Virus record (IMG/VR): IMGVR_UViG_648861009_000009
DNA from: a virus
Taxonomy: Duplodnaviria; Heunggongvirae; Uroviricota; Caudoviricetes
Length of the DNA stretch: 43,791 nucleotides
Strand: one strand, 5' to 3'
Shown: positions 1-43,791 of the stretch, one piece after another
How the letters are laid out: each line of letters begins with the position of its first letter
Numbering within the stretch: position 1 is the first letter of the stretch
Made by a program: the position numbers and the translations under genes
Notes under the pieces: generated by a model
Databases searched by the model: none
Told to the model about the DNA's origin: nothing
The model's input: the letters and a program-made list of their open reading frames with translations, nothing else

Positions 1-933
1 ATGGACAACGACAAAATTGATCAACACAGCGACGAAATTGAAGTTGAGAGCGAAGAAAAAGAGCGCGGCAAAAAAATAGAAATAGATGAAGATCGACTCC
101 CCTCCCGGGCGATGGCAATTCATGAGCATATCCGCCAGGATGGTGAAAAAGAGCTGGAACGCGACGCAATGGCACTACTGTGGTCAGCCATTGCGGCGGG
201 TCTGTCGATGGGCGCTTCATTACTGGCAAAAGGGATATTTCATGTCGAACTGGAAGGTGTGCCGGGCAGCTTCTTGCTGGAGAATCTCGGTTATACCTTT
301 GGTTTTATTATCGTCATTATGGCCCGCCAGCAATTATTTACCGAAAACACCGTGACTGCGGTACTACCCGTCATGCAAAAACCGACAATGAGCAACGTTG
401 GCTTACTTATGCGGTTATGGGGCGTCGTGCTGCTGGGTAATATTCTCGGGACAGGTATTGCGGCGTGGGCATTTGAATATATGCCAATCTTCAATGAAGA
501 AACTCGCGATGCATTTGTCAAAATCGGCATGGATGTGATGAAGAACACCCCCAGCGAGATGTTTGCCAACGCGATCATTTCCGGCTGGCTGATCGCCACT
601 ATGGTATGGATGTTTCCTGCAGCGGGTGCGGCAAAGATTGTGGTGATTATATTGATGACCTGGCTTATTGCCCTGGGTGACACCACTCACATCGTTGTCG
701 GTTCTGTTGAAATCCTCTATCTGGTGTTTAACGGTACGCTGCACTGGAGCGATTTCATCTGGCCCTTCGCACTACCTACTTTAGCGGGGAACATCTGCGG
801 CGGCACCTTTATCTTCGCGTTAATGAGTCATGCACAGATTCGTAACGACATGAGCAACAAGCGCAAAGCAGAAGCACGCCAAAAAGCAGAACGTGCGGAA
901 AACATTAAGAAAAATGATAAAAACCCGGCATAA
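1..933 (+). CDS. yfdC: Formate/nitrite-transporter-family inner membrane protein YfdC (host gene)
   Basis: 310-aa ORF, multi-TM, matches remembered E. coli YfdC; lies immediately upstream of argW as in K-12. Confidence 0.85.
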   Translation: MDNDKIDQHSDEIEVESEEKERGKKIEIDEDRLPSRAMAIHEHIRQDGEKELERDAMALLWSAIAAGLSMGASLLAKGIFHVELEGVPGSFLLENLGYTFGFIIVIMARQQLFTENTVTAVLPVMQKPTMSNVGLLMRLWGVVLLGNILGTGIAAWAFEYMPIFNEETRDAFVKIGMDVMKNTPSEMFANAIISGWLIATMVWMFPAAGAAKIVVIILMTWLIALGDTTHIVVGSVEILYLVFNGTLHWSDFIWPFALPTLAGNICGGTFIFALMSHAQIRNDMSNKRKAEARQKAERAENIKKNDKNPA

Positions 934-1008
934 ATGGCGAGGGTTTAAGCAATCGAGCGGCAGCGTACTTACCCCGCAGTCCATTAGCGGGTATACTCAT
1001 GCCGCATT

Positions 1009-1083
1009 GTCCTCTTAGTTAAATGGATATAACGAGCCCCTCCTAAGGGCTAATTGCAGGTTCGATTCCTGCAGGGGACACCA
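1009..1083 (+). tRNA. argW: tRNA-Arg (anticodon CCU)
   Basis: 75-nt sequence GTCCTCTTAGTTAAATGGATATAACGAGCCCCTCCTAAGGGCTAATTGCAGGTTCGATTCCTGCAGGGGACACCA; cloverleaf, CCT anticodon, 3' CCA. Confidence 0.9.
1069..1083. repeat. attL core (15-bp direct repeat, 3' end of argW)
   Basis: ctgcaggggacacca repeated exactly at 42088-42102. Confidence 0.75.
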
Positions 1084-1244
1084 TTTATCAGTTCGCTCCC
1101 ATCCGTACCAGTCCGCAAAATCCCCTGAATATCAAGCCTTCCGTAGATTCACAGTTCGTCATGGTTCGCGTCAGATCGTTGACAGCCGCACTCCATGACG
1201 GGTAAAAAGTGGATAAAATAATTTTACCCACCGGATTTTTACCC

Positions 1245-2402
1245 ATGCTCACCGTTAAGCAGATTGAAGCAGCAAAGCCGAAAGAAAAACCATACCGCCT
1301 TCTCGATGGTAATGGCCTGTACCTTTATGTCCCTGTGTCAGGGAAAAAGGTATGGCAGCTTCGCTACAAGATTGACGGTAAGGAGAAAATCCTGACCGTC
1401 GGGAAATATCCGCTTATGAGTTTGCAGGAGGCAAGGGATAAAGCATGGACCGCGAGGAAAGACATCTCGGTTGGCATCGATCCGGTAAAAGCGAAAAAGG
1501 CTTCGTCTAACAACAATTCCTTTAGCGCCATTTACAAGGAATGGTACGAGCACAAGAAGCAAGTATGGTCAGTAGGGTATGCGACTGAACTTGCAAAAAT
1601 GTTTGATGACGACATTTTACCTATCATCGGCGGCCTTGAAATTCAGGATATTGAGCCGATAAAACTGCTGGAAGTAATCCGCAGATTTGAAGATCGCGGT
1701 GCAATGGAGCGAGCCAACAAAGCCCGCAGAAGATGCGGAGAGGTTTTCCGTTACGCTATTGTCACTGGTAGGGCTAAATATAACCCGGCACCTGACCTTG
1801 CTGACGCCATGAAGGGATACCGCAAGAAGAACTTCCCGTTTCTCCCAGCAGACCAGATCCCTGCATTCAACAAAGCACTGGCAACATTTTCAGGAAGCAT
1901 CATATCGCTCATTGCGACCAAAGTTTTACGCTACACAGCCCTAAGAACGAAAGAGCTTCGCTCCATGCAATGGAAGAACGTCGATTTTGAAAACAGGATT
2001 ATCACTATCGACGCCAGTGTGATGAAGGGCCGCAAAATTCATGTGGTCCCGATGTCAGACCAGGTGGTTGAACTTCTCACTACGCTAAGCTCAATCACCA
2101 AACCAGTCTCAGAGTTTGTTTTTGCCGGGCGCAACGATAAGAAGAAGCCAATCTGCGAGAACGCGGTTCTACTTGTGATCAAACAAATCGGCTATGAGGG
2201 TCTGGAAAGCGGTCACGGATTCAGGCATGAATTCAGCACGATTATGAACGAGCACGAATGGCCTGCTGACGCTATTGAAGTGCAACTTGCACATGCCAAC
2301 GGCGGATCTGTGCGTGGAATTTACAACCATGCTCAGTATCTCGATAAGCGCAGAGAAATGATGCAGTGGTGGGCGGACTGGATTGATGAAAAGGTGGGCT
2401 AA
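1245..2402 (+). CDS. intS: Tyrosine integrase IntS-type
   Basis: ORF 1209-2402 (GTG at 1209); ATG at 1245 gives MLTVKQIEAAKPKEKPYRLLDGNGLYLYVP matching remembered K-12 IntS; adjacent to argW. Confidence 0.88.
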   Translation: MLTVKQIEAAKPKEKPYRLLDGNGLYLYVPVSGKKVWQLRYKIDGKEKILTVGKYPLMSLQEARDKAWTARKDISVGIDPVKAKKASSNNNSFSAIYKEWYEHKKQVWSVGYATELAKMFDDDILPIIGGLEIQDIEPIKLLEVIRRFEDRGAMERANKARRRCGEVFRYAIVTGRAKYNPAPDLADAMKGYRKKNFPFLPADQIPAFNKALATFSGSIISLIATKVLRYTALRTKELRSMQWKNVDFENRIITIDASVMKGRKIHVVPMSDQVVELLTTLSSITKPVSEFVFAGRNDKKKPICENAVLLVIKQIGYEGLESGHGFRHEFSTIMNEHEWPADAIEVQLAHANGGSVRGIYNHAQYLDKRREMMQWWADWIDEKVG

Positions 2403-2423
2403 CCAACGCTATATCTCAGATAG

Positions 2424-2457
2424 CACAAAGCCTTGCAATCCAGTGCAAAGCTTTGTG
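2424..2457. repeat. Imperfect 14-bp-arm inverted repeat between convergent int and late operon (possible bidirectional terminator)
   Basis: cacaaagccttgca / tgcaaagctttgtg with 6-nt loop; no clear U-tract. Confidence 0.3.
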
Positions 2458-2493
2458 TGTCTCAGTTTTGCCTCATAGGTAACTCTGTGTTAA

Positions 2494-2793
2494 CTACGAT
2501 GCAAGAATCCATACCAATAAGCATCCGATAATTGGGAAAGAAAAATCCAACAAACTTCCCACATCCCACACGCGTGGATCAAAACCTCCCCACCACGGCA
2601 TGTTGACACGTTTCCCTTTCCCAAACTTTTCTATCCAGCGATATTCTGCCTGGGTGTGTTCACGCGCAATGAAGAACGTACAACCGGCTATCGCACCGTA
2701 AGCCCAGTTTCCGGTAAAAATACCAACCAGTACCTGAGCCGCAAAAGCGCAAAGCGAGTGAAGAAATGGAGTGACATCAATGCTCTTAATCAT
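2494..2793 (-). CDS. Small 3-TM membrane protein at the lysogenic-conversion locus (moron, function unknown)
   Basis: 99-aa ORF; start overlaps tailspike stop (ATGA); hydrophobic segments; occupies the slot between tailspike and int where gtrABC/oac lie in relatives. Confidence 0.55.
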   Translation of the reverse strand: MIKSIDVTPFLHSLCAFAAQVLVGIFTGNWAYGAIAGCTFFIAREHTQAEYRWIEKFGKGKRVNMPWWGGFDPRVWDVGSLLDFSFPIIGCLLVWILAS

Positions 2794-4930
2794 GAAACTT
2801 CCCCATTGGTTGAAAATATGGCTCCTCCAACTCCAAGTGTATTTCGTGTTGTGCTCAACCTAAGAGGGCTGGAGTCAGAATTAGAATATCCTGTAGCAGA
2901 AATAAAAGATCCTCCACTAATAGTCAACTGCGGAACATCGGCTATATCTGAATAAGTTCTGTCAGCAACAGTATTATTTATAGCCACATGTGATCCAAAA
3001 AAACTTCTTATTGTTTGGTTTTTAACTTTACTTCCTTCAATGGTTATCCTACTACCACAGTCAGCAATAAATCCTGAATCTGCATCCAGCGTTGCATTCA
3101 TAAAAGAAGCTTCAGATCTCTCTACATCAATCCATCTAATATCTTTTGTGGGATTTGCACCAAATACATGACAAATATTAGAGTTAAACCTTACACCATC
3201 TTGGAGGTGCATTAATTTTTTTATATCTGTACCCCATAGCCTTGGAAAATTAACAGATGCTCCTGCATGGCAATCAAATCCCAACTCAGCCCCTGAGATA
3301 TCTACAGCCTTTCCTGAAATAACAGCACCAGTGTCTGCATTAACGGCTGTTCCACAATTGCGCATATCATTACCAGCAATATCAACACAACTCGCACCAT
3401 CAATACGCACACCAAGTGCACATCCATAAAAACCTTTTTCAATATTTGGTTCAAGGACTTTACCACTTGTTTCTGCATCACTTTCTTCAACGTCATGTCG
3501 TCTTGCATCAACATATGCTGTATGAATGCAGGTTAATCCACGATATGAGCAATGTATAGTTTTATGGTCGCGTATATTAACATTTNNNNNNNNNNNNNNN
3601 NNNNNNNNNNNNNNNNNNNNNNNNNNNNNNNNNNNNNNNNNNNNNNNNNNNNNNNNNNNNNNNNNNNNNAACCATCTCTTACATTCCATCCTATATAACA
3701 ATAGCTTGCACTTGACCCCTGAAAATCTGCTTTAACATTATAAATACAATTAACTGACGCAACCGTACTCTCTGTGCACCGTTCAAACTTGCTTACAGGC
3801 ATTGATGCCTTGACATTATTTACCAGTTGCAGGGAAGAGTATCTGCTATAAGAAAAATCACATACGTAATACCCTTCTGGCATATATGCAGCAACACTTT
3901 CCTCATCAGGAGCACATCCGGTATGATATGCACTAATTTTTGCACCAAAGCTACCATGAATTCCAACGTAGAACTTTCGAGCACCTGAATACGGATAGAA
4001 ATTAAGTTCAGCTTTTTGAGTTACAATAAATGCACAAACATCGCTATCATCTCTATTTTCTTCAATCTGAATAGCAAATACAGGACTTTTTGCTGCATCG
4101 CAAATGTAAAATAAATATTTGTATTCGTAATACGTCCTAACAGTTTTAGTAAACAAACTGGTATCAGAGAAAACCACTGAGTCTTCTGATATTATTTTAA
4201 TCCATGATAAGTCACATCCTGCTGAAATTTCTATTTGCTCATTGAGCACAAAACCGGAAAGAATTTTAATTATGCAAAAGTCAATGCCATTTTTCCATAG
4301 TGGACGCAGTGCAACAGCCGAGTTTAGAGCATCACTAATAGATTTAAAATTACCATATTCCCCAACTGTTATTGTGAATGCATACCTGGAATTAAATACT
4401 GCGGCACTCTCTCCAGAGTTAATAGCTGCAGATATCATGTCATAATTTGATATAAAATCATTTGGCGTGATTATTTCTGCGTTTTTATTGTGCTGTGTTC
4501 TAAGTTTTGAATTTACATGAACACTTTTAACTGCAATACGGGAGTCGTCAACAAGTATTTCATTACCCTCTGTTGCTAACTCTTGTCTTAACTGATCCGG
4601 GTCATACTTCAGCACATTCGGAAAATTGAACTGCTGTGCACCATACGCATCATAAACAGCCATAGAATGGCCTTGCTCAGTTACGAATTTGGCAATCTGT
4701 CCGTTATATACAGGGTAACCAGCAGCGTTAATGATGATTGGTTGCGATACAGGAACGTGAGAACCGTCTTCATTCTCCACATAAACCTGAATCTGGTTTT
4801 CAGGATTTACAGGGTCAGTGTCAATTTTTCCGATATAAATTTTGCCATTGGCAACCGCTTTAAAAGAACGTGCCATAGTGAAGAGTTGCGAAGGCATCGA
4901 TACGATCACATTGGCTGTAATGTCTGTCAT
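2790..4930 (-). CDS. Tailspike protein, P22 gp9-type N-terminal head-binding domain plus distinct receptor-binding domain; interrupted by assembly gap
   Basis: N-terminus [43 protein letters not shown] matches P22 tailspike; ORF spans N-run 3586-3669. Confidence 0.85.
3586..3669. other. Assembly gap (84 N) inside tailspike gene
   Basis: Run of N. Confidence 0.95.
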
Positions 4931-4996
4931 TTAATTTGCTCCAGATACAATGAATCGCCGCAGCGTGGCTACGGTTGGTATTTGTTTTGTTTTTGA

Positions 4997-5015
4997 ACTA
5001 CGAAAATTTCGTAGT
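4997..5015. repeat. Perfect palindrome ACTACGAAA-A-TTTCGTAGT upstream of tailspike
   Basis: 9+1+9 inverted repeat read directly. Confidence 0.5.
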
Positions 5016-5065
5016 GCTATCCATCAAGGCCATCGCCGCTTAGTTGCTGCGGTGAATTTTGGGCA

Positions 5066-5089
5066 TAAAAAAACCCAGCCGAAGCTGGG
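5066..5089 (-). terminator. Rho-independent terminator downstream of ant
   Basis: Minus-strand CCCAGC-TTCG-GCTGGG followed by T7 tract. Confidence 0.65.
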
Positions 5090-5108
5090 TCGTTGCGTTG
5101 GTTATCTG

Positions 5109-6032
5109 TCAGTAGTTATGTACTGAAGGAGGTAATTCTTTATTCTTAAGTCTCATCCATGCTGAAAGATTCGTTGGTCCGTCTGGCTCATTAATATCAA
5201 CATCTCGTGTATGGTTGATTAAAACATCTCTCGCCATATCGATAATACGGGAGAACTCATAACCGCAGTCATGACATCTGCCGGAATAGTTCGATTGAAT
5301 TTGTTTTAATGCCGGATACAGTTCGCGGAATAATGCCTGTGAGCGGTTGGCATAATCCCATAACCATACAAGGCTGTTTGCTTCTTTTGCAGAAAGCTCG
5401 TTTGCTTTCTTCTCTTGTTTGCCAATGAACTCACCTTCAAGTGGAACTCGAGCTGCAAGTGACAGTGCTTCTGTAAACTGCTCCTCACTGATTTCTTTGT
5501 ACGAACATCCAAAATGGGATTTCAGTGACGACCACATGGTGATCATCGCCTTAGCCTGTTTTTCTTTTGGCAGAGACTGACCGCGACTCATGACGAGTTG
5601 TTTAATGGCTTCCTGCTGTTCAGTGGTAATTTTACCCGGCAACGCCTTTTTAGCTTTGCGTGGGTTAACTACATGGCCTTTAGTCCAGTACTCGTATAGC
5701 ACATCGTCACACTCTTCCTGATACTGGATTACCTTGTCGCGGATTTCAGGACGGACTTTGTTTGGTTGAATACTTGAAAGCCAAGCCGCAAATTTACGAA
5801 AGGCAAGACATGTCATTAACTGTTTACCGCCAGCAGAAGGTATTTCGATTTCCGAAATACCTTTGGCAAACCTCTGTTTTAACTTAACAAATTGAGCTGC
5901 CCAAACCATCCCCATGCCTTCAACAACAGGCTTCATAGGAACATAAGGCTCATTGTTAATTCCAACCAAAAAAAGATTTGTTCCGTGGAATGGAACATTG
6001 ATTGTGCGATCTGCAATTGCTAAACTAGTCAT
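5109..6032 (-). CDS. ant: Antirepressor Ant (AntA N-domain type)
   Basis: 307-aa ORF at the immI position adjacent to tailspike, downstream of arc-like gene; RBS AGGAA. Confidence 0.75.
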   Translation of the reverse strand: MTSLAIADRTINVPFHGTNLFLVGINNEPYVPMKPVVEGMGMVWAAQFVKLKQRFAKGISEIEIPSAGGKQLMTCLAFRKFAAWLSSIQPNKVRPEIRDKVIQYQEECDDVLYEYWTKGHVVNPRKAKKALPGKITTEQQEAIKQLVMSRGQSLPKEKQAKAMITMWSSLKSHFGCSYKEISEEQFTEALSLAARVPLEGEFIGKQEKKANELSAKEANSLVWLWDYANRSQALFRELYPALKQIQSNYSGRCHDCGYEFSRIIDMARDVLINHTRDVDINEPDGPTNLSAWMRLKNKELPPSVHNY

Positions 6033-6033
6033 G

Positions 6034-6110
6034 TCGTTAATTCCTATGCGTGGTTTTACGATACCGAAGCCCTGACTGTTCCTGCAGTTGGGGCTTCACT
6101 GTTTTGATTT
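6034..6110 (+). ncRNA. Candidate sar-like antisense RNA complementary to the ant RBS/start
   Basis: Plus-strand -35 TTGATT (5998-6003), 17-bp spacer, -10 TAAACT (6021-6026); hairpin 6066-6097 then U-rich tract; ~75 nt. Confidence 0.35.
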
Positions 6111-6265
6111 CTTTGCCGCATCAAGCATCACTTCTGAAAACGTGCGCTTGCCACTGAATACTCTTTCTCTTCTCAATTTTTCGTTCGCGCCAAATGATTC
6201 GCCATGAACAAAATTTGGTCTCAAAATGGTAAGCACAATCTCTTTGACTACTGCATCCAAGCAAA

Positions 6266-6406
6266 TCACACTGTTACCCCCTCCCTCTTCAGGCTGTCCA
6301 GCACCCGTTTAATTACTTCTGCACTGAATGAGCGACACTCTTCCTTTGCTTTTTCTTCAAGAATTTTTTCTAGCTTCTCTGGCATACGCAGTGTTTTAAC
6401 CTTCAT
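6266..6406 (-). CDS. arc: Arc-like ribbon-helix-helix repressor
   Basis: 46-aa ORF MKVKTLRMPEKLEKILEEKAKEECRSFSAEVIKRVLDSLKREGVTV; RHH pattern like P22 Arc; RBS GGAGGA; upstream of ant; below ORF-track cutoff. Confidence 0.6.
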   Translation of the reverse strand: MKVKTLRMPEKLEKILEEKAKEECRSFSAEVIKRVLDSLKREGVTV

Positions 6407-6511
6407 TGTATCCTCCGTTGTATGTGGTACGCATACATAGTATTTAGGTACGCATTGATAGTCAATAGATACCTACATATCCTGTGGTAAAAAATTATTC
6501 AGGATGCGCCG
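6407..6511. promoter_or_regulatory. immI divergent promoter/operator region
   Basis: Direct repeats GGTACGCAT at 6426-6434 and 6447-6455 (21-bp spacing); TGTGGTA at 6423-6429 and 6483-6489. Confidence 0.4.
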
Positions 6512-6676
6512 ATGTCTGATCGTAAGTACAAAAACCCTCAAGTGAATCTGAGGCTTCCTGTAGAGATAAAGGAACGTCTTATTGAACTGGCTGAGGCTAA
6601 TTCTCGTTCATTAAATGCTGAGATGGTCGCGGCACTTGAAGCGTGGACCGAAAAAATAAACACATTCAAGCACTAG
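6512..6676 (+). CDS. mnt: Mnt-like RHH repressor, apparently truncated (C-terminal domain in -1 frame to 6759)
   Basis: 54-aa ORF MSDRKYKNPQVNLRLPVEIKERLIELAEANSRSLNAEMVAALEAWTEKINTFKH divergent from arc; downstream frame encodes LATIASRLIDLEHDVETLKTMYGKDK. Confidence 0.55.
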   Translation: MSDRKYKNPQVNLRLPVEIKERLIELAEANSRSLNAEMVAALEAWTEKINTFKH

Positions 6677-6761
6677 ACCTTGCAACTATAGCATCACGAT
6701 TGATAGATCTTGAACACGATGTTGAGACGCTAAAGACCATGTATGGTAAGGATAAATAAAT

Positions 6762-7040
6762 ATGACAGATACCAAAGTGAACTTCAGAGAAACCATCTTC
6801 AAGGACTCAAGTGATGCTGTAAATGAGTATGCTGATGGATTTGCTTACTCGTCTTTTGGGGATGTCGGAGCAAGATTTGGTTCAATAGCATTTTTTAAGC
6901 ATGTTTCAGACTGGGTTAATAATGAGGAGATTCAGCCAGTTAGATACCAAATTGCCAACATTCGCATGAGTGAAAATCAACTTCTTGAACTGGCTAAGTA
7001 TATAGTTTCTCAACACGAAGAATCAAAAAAATTAAGCTGA
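6762..7040 (+). CDS. Hypothetical soluble protein, first gene of sieA-position cassette
   Basis: 92-aa ORF, RBS AAGGA, no TM. Confidence 0.5.
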   Translation: MTDTKVNFRETIFKDSSDAVNEYADGFAYSSFGDVGARFGSIAFFKHVSDWVNNEEIQPVRYQIANIRMSENQLLELAKYIVSQHEESKKLS

Positions 7041-7047
7041 CAGAGCC

Positions 7048-7608
7048 ATGATTACTTTTCCTGCCGTAAATGCTGATCATGCAGCGGAGAAAAAGAGAAC
7101 TCTTGGTCGTATGGGGTCGACAGGTGGCATAGGAGAAAAGTCCAATGCTTCGCCTCCAGTTACCAAGAATGATATAACCAAAAACAATAATATCGCTTAT
7201 CTTGGAAAACAATACACTGAGGAGCATGCTATGGGCAGCCCATCAAGAGAAGAGATTGACGCGAAGCTTGGTCAAAACAAAGCAGAAATTGAGTTAATAT
7301 CTGCTAACATGCGCGCTGAAATTTCAGCTTTCAGAGAATTCCAATCTAAGCAATTTACAGCTATGAATCAGTCCCTTAATGAAATTAAGGGACAGATATT
7401 CGCTAGCAATGGCGAAGTTGCAGGGCTCAAAGGTCAAATTGATGGCATTAAAACATCCATGACCGCGACCCAATGGCTCGTTGGTGCGGTTCTCGCTATG
7501 CTTGCGGTAATCATAACGCTTCCGCAGATTCAATCTTACTTCAAGGTTTCTGAGCCGACTGCGAAGGAAGCCGCTAGTGAAACCCATGATACCAAAATAA
7601 AGCAGTGA
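7048..7608 (+). CDS. Coiled-coil protein with C-terminal TM anchor (start may be 7231)
   Basis: 186-aa ORF; strong RBS GAGGAG before internal ATG at 7231; C-terminal WLVGAVLAMLAVIITLP. Confidence 0.5.
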   Translation: MITFPAVNADHAAEKKRTLGRMGSTGGIGEKSNASPPVTKNDITKNNNIAYLGKQYTEEHAMGSPSREEIDAKLGQNKAEIELISANMRAEISAFREFQSKQFTAMNQSLNEIKGQIFASNGEVAGLKGQIDGIKTSMTATQWLVGAVLAMLAVIITLPQIQSYFKVSEPTAKEAASETHDTKIKQ

Positions 7609-7636
7609 TCTTACCAATAAAACCTGGGAGGACAAC

Positions 7637-7864
7637 ATGAAGCAATGGCTCATCATAATTGCTGTTTTTTTGCTCATTTACACTGTTTTCCCAACATTAA
7701 AAGCACCAATGCAAATAATTTCACTGGCAATAATTGCGATTGGTGCTTTCATTGCTGTAGCCGTACTTGTGTTTAAGGTTTTAAAGTTTTTAGTTTGGCT
7801 ATCAAAAGATGATGGATGCAAAGTTCATCAAGAAAAAGAAGGCAAAATAACCAAAGTTGACTAA
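7637..7864 (+). CDS. Small 2-TM membrane protein
   Basis: 75-aa ORF, RBS GGGAGG, two hydrophobic helices, charged C-terminus. Confidence 0.5.
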   Translation: MKQWLIIIAVFLLIYTVFPTLKAPMQIISLAIIAIGAFIAVAVLVFKVLKFLVWLSKDDGCKVHQEKEGKITKVD

Positions 7865-27308: not shown

Positions 27309-28309
27309 GCCGCCCTCCTGACGCCCTGCCCGATCGCCATCAATGCCGCTTTGGATACGGTAGTAAACATCCGTCGAGGACTGATGAACGGTCGCCAAAT
27401 CAGCAGCATGGAGCCTTTGCTGTTTCCCTTCTTCTCTAGCCCCGTCGATGGTTCGATAAAATTAATCCGTCCATCAGTGATAATACGAACTTCGTCAACA
27501 CTCTCCAGAGCCTTGCTGAACCATCCGACTGACATATCCTCTGGCACAAGCATAACTACCGTCTGTCGCTGTTGTATGCACTGCTCAGCGGCTTTTTCCA
27601 CCCACGGCCTGATATTGCTGTACGGTGGGTTATTCCAGATTGCACCGTGGCTTACCCACTCAGAATTGAGCGCGTCGTCGGCCTCAGTTAGCCAGTGAGC
27701 GCACAGAGCATTTTTGNNNNNNNNNNNNNNNNNNNNNNNNNNNNNNNNNNNNNNNNNNNNNNNNNNNNNNNNNNNNNNNNNNNNNNNNNNNNNNNNNNNN
27801 NNNNNNNNNNNNNNNNNNNNNNNNNNNNNNNNNNNNNNNNNNNNNNNNNNNNNNNNNNNNNNNNNNNNNNNNNNNNNNNNNNNNNNNNNNNNNNNNNNNN
27901 NNNNNNNNNNNNNNNNNNNNNNNNNNNNNNNNNNNNNNNNNNNNNNNNNNNNNNNNNNNNNNNNNNNNNNNNNNNNNNNNNNNNAGCCTTGCTGAACCAT
28001 CCGACTGACATTATCCTCTGGCACAAGCATAACTACCGTCTGTCGCTGTTGTATGCACTGCTCAGCGGCTTTTTCCACCCACGGCCTGATATTGCTGTAC
28101 GGTGGGTTATTCCAGATTGCACCGTGGCTTACCCACTCAGAATTGAGCGCGTCGTCGGCCTCAGTTAGCCAGTGAGCGCACAGAGCATTTTTGTCGCTCG
28201 CTGCCGAATCCAGCCAGAATCCAAACTCAATATCCAGTGCATCAAAAAGCCAAAGCGGCGTTTGCCAGCAGTCCTTGTCGTGTGCTGGCGTATTTGATTT
28301 GATAGTCAT
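27305..28309 (-). CDS. Phage N6-adenine DNA methyltransferase (Dam-like), reading frame spans assembly gap and duplicated flank
   Basis: [19 protein letters not shown]...AIWNNPPYS (NPPY motif IV); gap 27717-27984; true gene probably ~180 codons. Confidence 0.7.
27717..27984. other. Assembly gap (268 N) flanked by ~200-bp duplicated sequence
   Basis: 27510-27716 repeats at 27985-28190 with a 1-nt indel. Confidence 0.9.
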
Positions 28310-36031: not shown

Positions 36032-36886
36032 ATGAGTGAAGTAACAGATTTAGTTGTTATTGAAAAAGCAAATGCAATGACTGTATTTCAGTCTGCCGAC
36101 CAGATTGAAGAAATCCTTCAAAAGGTTGAACGTGAAGTTATGTCCTTTGTGCCTGATATCACAACGGCAAAGGGCAGAAAGGAGATCGCTTCTCTGGCGT
36201 ATAAAGTTGCGCAGACGAAAACATATCTCGATGGTCTTGGCAAAGACCTTGTTGCTGAACTGAAGGAAATTCCAAAGCTAATTGATGCCAACCGCAAGAC
36301 AGTGCGCGATCGCCTTGATGAACTGAAAGCCAAGGCGCGCCAGCCTCTTACTGATTATGAGGAAGAACAGGCGCGGATTAAAGCCGAAGAAGAAGCTAAG
36401 GCAGCAGCTGAAGCTCTCGCAAAGCAAATTGAGTCTGACCATGAAATAGCGATTTTGATGGATCGCGAATTTGACCGCCAAAGAGAAGAGGCAAGACTCA
36501 AAGCGGAGCAGGAAAAGCGAGAGCATGAAGAACGATTAAAAAGAGAAGCTGAAGAGAAAGCCAGAGCAGAAGCCGAAGCAAAGGCAAAAGCCGAAATTGA
36601 AGCAGCAGCAAGGCGAGAAGCAGAAGCTAAGGCCGCAGCGGAACGTGCAGAGCGTGAACGCATTGAAGCCGAGCAACGAGCACAGCGCGAAGCAAAAGAG
36701 GCAGCAGAACGAGCTGAAAGAGAAAAGCAGGCAGCAATTGAAGCAGAACGCAGAAAAGCACAGGAGGAGGCTGAACGAATCCGTCGCGAGGCTGAAGCAA
36801 AAGAGCAAGCCAGAATAGCAGAAGAAAAAGAATCAAGGACGAAGAAGAGCGCAGAGCAAAGGATAAAGCTCACCGGAAAGAAGTAA
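36032..36886 (+). CDS. Coiled-coil protein with long E/A/K/R-rich low-complexity region; possible frameshifted C-terminus to 36999
   Basis: 284-aa ORF, RBS AAGGAGGA; stop-free downstream frame encodes ...NNKILADLIKVGASEDVAKNIITAIVKGEVFATKITY. Confidence 0.55.
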   Translation: MSEVTDLVVIEKANAMTVFQSADQIEEILQKVEREVMSFVPDITTAKGRKEIASLAYKVAQTKTYLDGLGKDLVAELKEIPKLIDANRKTVRDRLDELKAKARQPLTDYEEEQARIKAEEEAKAAAEALAKQIESDHEIAILMDREFDRQREEARLKAEQEKREHEERLKREAEEKARAEAEAKAKAEIEAAARREAEAKAAAERAERERIEAEQRAQREAKEAAERAEREKQAAIEAERRKAQEEAERIRREAEAKEQARIAEEKESRTKKSAEQRIKLTGKK

Positions 36887-41680: not shown

Positions 41681-41813
41681 CCATAAAATAACACGCCTCA
41701 CACTCGATGAGGCATGTTCATTGCTCAAGATATCCAGACCTATCATCGCCGCATCAATGCGTTTTTTTATTGCCTGATTTGCAGGTTCGATTCCCTATTC
41801 GGAGATAGCACTC

Positions 41814-42543: not shown

Positions 42544-43791
42544 CTATATTGCTGAAGGTACAGGCGTTTCCATAACTATTTGCTCGCGTTTTTTACTCAG
42601 GAAGAAAATGCCAAATAGCAACATCAGGCAGACAATACCCGAAATTGCGAAGAAAACTGTCTGGTAGCCTGCGTGGTCAAAGAGTATCCCAGTCGGCGTT
42701 GAAAGCAGCACAATCCCAAGCGAACTGGCAATTTGAAAACCAATCAGAAAGATCGTCGACGACAGGCGCTTATCAAAGTTTGCCACGCTGTATTTGAAGA
42801 CGGATATGACACAAAGTGGAACCTCAATGGCATGTAACAGCTTCACTAATGAAATAATCCAGGGGTTAACGAACAACGCGCAGGAAAGGATACGCAACGC
42901 CATAATCACAACACCGATAAGTAATGCATTTTTTGGCCCTACCCGATTCACAAAGAAAGGAATAATCGCCATGCACAGCGCTTCGAGTACCACCTGGAAT
43001 GAGTTGAGATAACCATACAGGCGCGTTCCTACATCGTGTGATTCGAATAAACCTGCATAAAAGACAGGAAAGAGTTGTTGATCAAAAATGTTATAGAAAG
43101 ACCACGTCCCCACAATAAATATGACAAAAACCCAGAAGTTTCGATCCTTGAAAACTGCGATAAAATCCTCTTTTTTTACCCCTCCCGCATCCGCCGCTAC
43201 ACACTGGTGACCCTTATCTTTAAAACGCATGTTGATCATCATAAATACAGCGCCAAATAGCGAGACCAGCCAGAAGTTGATATGGGGACTGATACTAAAA
43301 AATATGCCGGCAAAGAACGCGCCAATAGCATAGCCAAAAGATCCCCAGGCGCGCGCTGTTCCATATTCGAAATGAAAATTTCGCGCCATTTTTTCAGTGA
43401 AGCTGTCAAGCAAACCACATCCCGCCAGATACCCCAGGCCAAAAAAGAGCGCCCCCAGAATTAGACCTACAGAAAAATTGCTTTGCAGTAACGGTTCATA
43501 AACGTAAATCATAAACGGTCCGGTCAAGACCAGAATGAAACTCATACACCAGATGAGCGGTTTCTTCAGACCGAGTTTATCCTGAACGATGCCGTAGAAC
43601 ATCATAAATAGAATGCTGGTAAACTGGTTGACCGAATAAAGTGTACCTAATTCCGTCCCTGTTAATCCTAGATGTCCTTTCAGCCAAATAGCGTATAACG
43701 ACCACCACAGCGACCAGGAAATAAAAAAGAGAAATGAGTAACTGGATGCAAAACGATAGTACGCATTTCTGAATGGAATATTCAGTGCCAT
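42544..43791 (-). CDS. cscB: Sucrose:H+ symporter CscB (LacY-family MFS)
   Basis: 415 aa, 12-TM, matches remembered E. coli CscB; csc locus is known to lie near argW in sucrose-positive strains. Confidence 0.85.
   Translation of the reverse strand: MALNIPFRNAYYRFASSYSFLFFISWSLWWSLYAIWLKGHLGLTGTELGTLYSVNQFTSILFMMFYGIVQDKLGLKKPLIWCMSFILVLTGPFMIYVYEPLLQSNFSVGLILGALFFGLGYLAGCGLLDSFTEKMARNFHFEYGTARAWGSFGYAIGAFFAGIFFSISPHINFWLVSLFGAVFMMINMRFKDKGHQCVAADAGGVKKEDFIAVFKDRNFWVFVIFIVGTWSFYNIFDQQLFPVFYAGLFESHDVGTRLYGYLNSFQVVLEALCMAIIPFFVNRVGPKNALLIGVVIMALRILSCALFVNPWIISLVKLLHAIEVPLCVISVFKYSVANFDKRLSSTIFLIGFQIASSLGIVLLSTPTGILFDHAGYQTVFFAISGIVCLMLLFGIFFLSKKREQIVMETPVPSAI

Follow-up and report, generated by a model that had tools for sequence, protein, structure and literature searches.

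The immunity region of a P22-like prophage of Escherichia coli holds an mnt-like repressor gene whose reading frame, as the sequence stands, is broken, and the question that it raises is whether the break belongs to the prophage or to the sequence recorded for it. The gene occupies positions 6512..6759 (+ strand, 248 nt as written) of a stretch of 43,791 nucleotides (IMG/VR record IMGVR_UViG_648861009_000009), which at its full length is called the window here, and the break coincides with a 1-nt deficit in a run of six adenines (A6) at 6651..6656. The initial annotation had offered two explanations, a homopolymer sequencing error or a real truncation that removes an oligomerisation domain and could derepress the antirepressor gene ant.

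Locus and prophage context

Scaffold GG774912.1 of the draft assembly GCA_000163215.1 is 100% identical to the window, runs of N included, and a protein specific to that scaffold bears the name E. coli FVEC1302; the source of the window is thus the FVEC1302 draft. A P22-like prophage integrated at argW lies within the window in its entirety. At the left end of the window are yfdC (1-933), the tRNA-Arg-CCT gene that serves as the prophage site (1009-1083) and an intS-like integrase gene (1209-2402; the prophage begins after), and at its right end, beyond the prophage, is the MFS transporter gene of the csc (sucrose) operon (42544-43791, - strand).

The mnt-like gene lies between a gp16-like ejection gene (7861-9984, - strand) and the tailspike gene (2790-4930, - strand), and is divergent from arc and ant. 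The ant gene (5109..6032, - strand) is intact and encodes an antirepressor of 307 aa that matches Pfam P22_AR_N (E 8e-40) and P22_AR_C (E 1e-27). The arc-like gene (6266..6406, - strand) encodes 46 aa, matches PF03869 (E 3e-8), and in relatives carries the annotation Arc family DNA-binding protein. This is the "immunity I / ant moron" layout described for P22 (PMC2629481). Between arc and ant is a small ORF (6096-6269, - strand, 57 aa from a GTG start) that has no Pfam match and is called as a gene of 54-67 aa in several independent assemblies; in P22 itself, by comparison, arc and ant are adjacent.

Within the arc/mnt intergenic control region (6407..6511), a consensus scan placed two promoter-like sites face to face, one directed towards mnt (6455-6483, + strand) and one towards arc-ant (6465-6437, - strand). 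A repeat scan added a 21-bp direct repeat in tandem (6426-6467, GGTACGCAT...), an inverted repeat of 18 nt with its arms at 6441-6458 and 6462-6479, and a palindrome at 6419-6437. By analogy with the P22 immI layout, the repeats and the palindrome are plausible candidate operators. One contig that bears the A6 run (L004, near 2936) has exactly one copy of the 21-bp repeat fewer than NRG857C.

Reading frames across the A run

The frames proved to be as the initial annotation had described them. An ORF of 54 aa (6512..6676, + strand) opens with ATG at 6512 and closes with TAG at 6674-6676; its residues 1-48 make up a complete ribbon-helix-helix (RHH) domain, and these are followed by six out-of-frame residues, INTFKH, and the stop. 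In the -1 frame an ORF runs from 6643 to 6759, encoding ...LDLATIASRLIDLEHDVETLKTMYGKDK and ending with TAA at 6757-6759. The part of it that lies beyond the A run (6657..6759, + strand) is the displaced 3' part of the mnt-like gene, and holds the linker and the conserved C-terminal helix NKHIQALDLATIASRLIDLEHDVETLKTMYGKDK.

Insertion of one A into the run fuses the two frames into a single protein, MSDRKYKNPQVNLRLPVEIKERLIELAEANSRSLNAEMVAALEAWTEKNKHIQALDLATIASRLIDLEHDVETLKTMYGKDK, encoded by 249 nt with the stop. The fusion had been predicted correctly, its size not quite: the product has 82 aa rather than about 83, the gene having 83 codons only when the stop is counted, and 82 aa is also the size of P22 Mnt, to which it had been likened. 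The repaired protein (P0123) is encoded without any difference on 999 public contigs, and relatives annotate the full-length gene, at 82-85 aa, as "Arc family DNA-binding protein" or "mnt". Given that the exact fused protein is this widespread and that close relatives annotate it, the fusion of the two frames is more than chance.

The repaired protein as a two-domain repressor

Both the 54-aa and the repaired 82-aa protein match the Arc-like ribbon-helix-helix family PF03869 above the cut-off (E 2-3e-10), and neither gave a hit to PF11423, the C-terminal domain of Repressor_Mnt, at E <= 0.1. Among PDB entries the closest by sequence is 1mnt, P22 Mnt (E 3e-5), and Arc comes next. The top Foldseek hits are chains of Arc repressor, with a probability of about 1.0 and TM scores, normalised by target, of about 0.7-0.8, and other RHH proteins were also found. 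Together with the layout of the locus, the PF03869 and 1mnt matches bear out the earlier description of the gene as an mnt-like repressor divergent from arc-ant.

In the AlphaFold (AF2) model of a 94%-identical homologue, helices are predicted at residues 17-29, 34-48 (helix B) and 57-79, the last with a pLDDT of up to 92. Since helix B ends at residue 48 in this model, the frame break falls just past the DNA-binding domain, and what it removes is, as modelled, a real C-terminal helix. The segment concerned is conserved (..KNKHIQALDLASIAERLIxLExEVxxLK) in 36 homologues of 77-88 aa found throughout Enterobacterales, which agrees with the suggestion, made from the displaced frame, that it encodes a genuine helix. 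The repaired gene is therefore that of a two-domain Mnt-like repressor, with an RHH domain and a C-terminal helix, and the gene underlying it is common and has been annotated before, as a Mnt-like repressor found in the P22-like prophages of both Salmonella and E. coli.

In ant morons of the CUS-3 type the mnt-like gene is followed directly downstream by another Mnt gene, of a different kind (82-88 aa, with a PF11423 match). Such tandem genes are present in L002 (CUS-3, 3518-3766), L005, L007, L009, L010, L012 and L013; in the window there is no PF11423-type paralogue.

Length of the A run among relatives

Among finished genomes, every close relative has a run of seven adenines (A7), the downstream frame fused, and an annotated gene of 82-85 aa, so that the comparison with homologous prophages proposed at the outset came out uniformly. 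The 75-bp core of the gene is present in 98 complete E. coli genomes, and a perfect match to the A6 query was found in none of them. The run is A7 on 30 of 31 IMG/VR contigs, and the exception is the STEC_7v draft, with A6. A pattern scan of genome contigs for the A6-A8 site gave no match.

The exact 54-aa product of the A6 form was nonetheless found on 51 contigs, as against 276 to more than 1000 contigs for each of the individual full-length alleles. The counterpart with one A too many (A8), a 49-aa product ending ...AWTEKK, was found on 2. At least five distinct C-terminal haplotypes carry the A6 run, and none of the 12 A6 copies examined has a disrupted downstream frame. The number of haplotypes and the undegraded frame together indicate recurrent events, either very recent mutations or errors, and not an old pseudogene.

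In eight of the ten A6 contigs that were examined, further homopolymers within a few kb have also lost a single base, often other A7 runs, and the run in mnt is accordingly not special. The remaining two, L005 (STEC_7v, GCA_000194575.2) and L011 (SRR17036757), had no demonstrable noise in a comparison limited to short stretches, and for this reason a real A6 allele may exist somewhere.

Sister assemblies reveal further homopolymer deletions in the draft

Relatives at 96-99% identity had made the window look clean, in favour of a real mutation; comparison with one at 97% turned up no isolated homopolymer indel across some 14 kb, which indicates that errors in the draft are sparse and not pervasive. 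It was two independent assemblies of the same prophage, 100% identical to it, that exposed the other homopolymer deletions. These sister assemblies (Logan SRR10969700 and GCA_014138985.1, about 33.9 kb compared in total) were located through the rarer Ant, 626-aa and 198-aa proteins, the coat protein being present on more than 14,000 blocks. A scan of the window alone for ORFs that merge upon addition or removal of one homopolymer base was too noisy to use, because adjacent genes merge by chance.

Over 13,284 bp, SRR10969700 differs from the window by no mismatches and one gap, which is the A tract of mnt (A7>A6). Over 20,597 bp, GCA_014138985.1 differs from FVEC1302 by no mismatches and three gaps, each of them a 1-nt homopolymer deletion in FVEC1302: A6>A5 at 36825-36829 of the window, T8>T7 at 41762-41768, and, outside the window, T7>T6 in the csc DNA of the chromosome. 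Thus 4 of the 54 runs of at least six bases have lost a base, in each case in FVEC1302, and there is not one substitution. The deletion at 36825 lies in the ORF at 36032-36886 (+ strand) and cuts a conserved early-region gene from the 322 aa that it has in five relatives to 284 aa. Besides the sister assembly, four other relatives have the longer run and the intact 322-aa gene, and the A5 at 36825-36829 is almost certainly a sequencing artefact. The T7 at 41762-41768 lies upstream of a 66-aa ORF near the end of the prophage.

The scaffolding of the draft is faulty as well, both runs of N being spurious gaps. The 84-N run at 3586-3669 corresponds to a single base (G) in SRR10969700, where the tailspike is one gene of 685 aa; the window shows it as two ORFs (2790-3701 and 3533-4930, - strand), and since the 84 Ns stand for one base, this split and change of frame are artefactual. 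The 268-N run at 27717-27984 is flanked by duplicated contig ends of about 208 bp (27509-28193), which differ from each other in having T (27535) or TT (28011-28012). This false gap artificially divides the gene for the phage Dam methylase. The artefactual frameshifts and gaps at 36825, 41762, 28012 and the two N runs could yield further false findings if the window is taken as it stands.

Error, mutation, recoding or a natural short protein

If the A6 run were genuine, it would have arisen very recently in the FVEC1302 prophage through slippage from A7 to A6, and the prophage would be left with a 54-aa, dimer-only RHH protein that lacks the oligomerisation helix, binds its operator more weakly and leaves ant derepressed. 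That A7 runs are natural sites of slippage, that the window is otherwise fairly clean by comparison with its 96-99% relatives, and that the A6 allele is found in L005 and L011 all speak for such a mutation, and the loss would plausibly matter, since a passage of PMC3325190, citing Waldburger & Sauer 1995, states that the C-terminal domain of P22 Mnt stabilises the tetramer. Four homopolymer deletions with no substitution over about 33.9 kb are, however, unlike real divergence; one of the four affects chromosomal csc DNA, and a second disrupts an unrelated gene of the prophage. The undegraded downstream frame of the A6 copies and the absence of A6 among the 98 finished genomes (perfect-match query) argue in the same direction. 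In P22, an mnt null with an intact ant should destabilise lysogeny, and here ant is intact, so that by analogy a lysogen with a null mnt should not be stable. We give a genuine mutation in FVEC1302 a small chance, and a real slippage hot spot, at which the A7 run occasionally switches prophages to a dimer-only repressor, one that is smaller by a shade; were there such a hot spot, it would bring leaky expression of the antirepressor and induction, and FVEC1302, or L005 and L011, would be natural examples. The real truncation that had been thought to derepress ant is thus unsupported, and the homopolymer error put forward beside it accords with the A7 runs of the substitution-free sisters and with the three further deletions in the draft.

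The A7 allele (GA A AAA AAT AAA) contains in frame a heptamer of the X_XXY_YYZ type, A_AAA_AAT, with a TAA at once in the -1 frame, and in this it resembles dnaX; the run might then be a programmed recoding site, where ribosomal -1 frameshifting or transcriptional slippage yields a short RHH-only form beside the full-length one. However, distant homologues with the same or similar residues have the run broken (GAG AAG AAC, ATT AAG AAT, GTT AAG AAT, GAA AAG AAC and others), no conserved stimulatory element was seen, the shift required of the A6 copies would merely repair their 1-nt deficit, and those copies are clustered in error-prone assemblies. A dnaX-type slippery site was rejected on the codons themselves, since among 49 distinct IMG/VR homologues the more distant ones show free variation at this position. 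Because conservation of the run does not extend to distant homologues, programmed frameshifting is unsupported, and the idea, which we consider very improbable, was dropped. Arc-type repressors of 46-53 aa do exist, the product of the neighbouring arc gene included, and the 54-aa ORF might accordingly be a natural short protein of this kind with a coincidental open frame downstream. That frame, though, encodes the segment conserved in the 36 homologues of 77-88 aa, both parts are fused in all clean relatives, and INTFKH follows the A run only in the A6 copies; the alignment of A7 homologues, the intact downstream frame and the C-terminal conservation refute a natural short Arc-like protein, the probability of which we regard as negligible.

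From the frames, the homology, the C-terminal conservation and the pattern of artefacts, we conclude with high confidence that the mnt-like gene is ordinary and intact, that its true run is A7, and that the A6 is a homopolymer under-call in a draft assembly, GCA_000163215.1, that under-calls homopolymer lengths. The true product would have 82 aa, in which an RHH DNA-binding domain (about 8-48) is joined by a short linker to a C-terminal helix (about 57-79). If it behaves as P22 Mnt does, this helix would pair dimers into a higher oligomer, the oligomer would bind an operator between arc and mnt, and binding there would keep the ant promoter shut in the lysogen. The "truncated mnt" of this prophage should not be taken as evidence of a derepressed antirepressor or of a decaying immunity region.

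Comparison with known systems

The defects of the FVEC1302 draft resemble the homopolymer under-calls of the pyrosequencing era, in that single-base deletions occur only in A/T runs of 6-8 and no substitutions separate the draft from its sisters; the spurious scaffold gaps with overlapping contig ends are likewise a feature of drafts of that time. We take this Broad draft to have been sequenced on 454; the literature searched on FVEC1302 held no information on the sequencing platform.

The repaired protein is like P22 Mnt (PDB 1mnt, 1qey) in having 82 aa and an N-terminal ribbon-helix-helix followed by a C-terminal helix, predicted in the present case, and its gene is placed as in P22, reading away from arc-ant and lying between the genes for the gp16-like ejection protein and the tailspike. 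It differs in that the two are only about 32% identical, with a presumed sequence for the C-terminal half of P22 Mnt, and in that its C-terminal part has no match to the Pfam family PF11423. The mnt gene of CUS-3 (ECRS218_0005) and the "Arc family DNA-binding protein" of P22-like prophages in E. coli and Salmonella, such as WP_021514397.1, are the same gene as that in the window. In E. coli O114:H49 90-9280, the strain of WP_021514397.1, the DNA is identical to the window over 6500-6770 except for one extra A.
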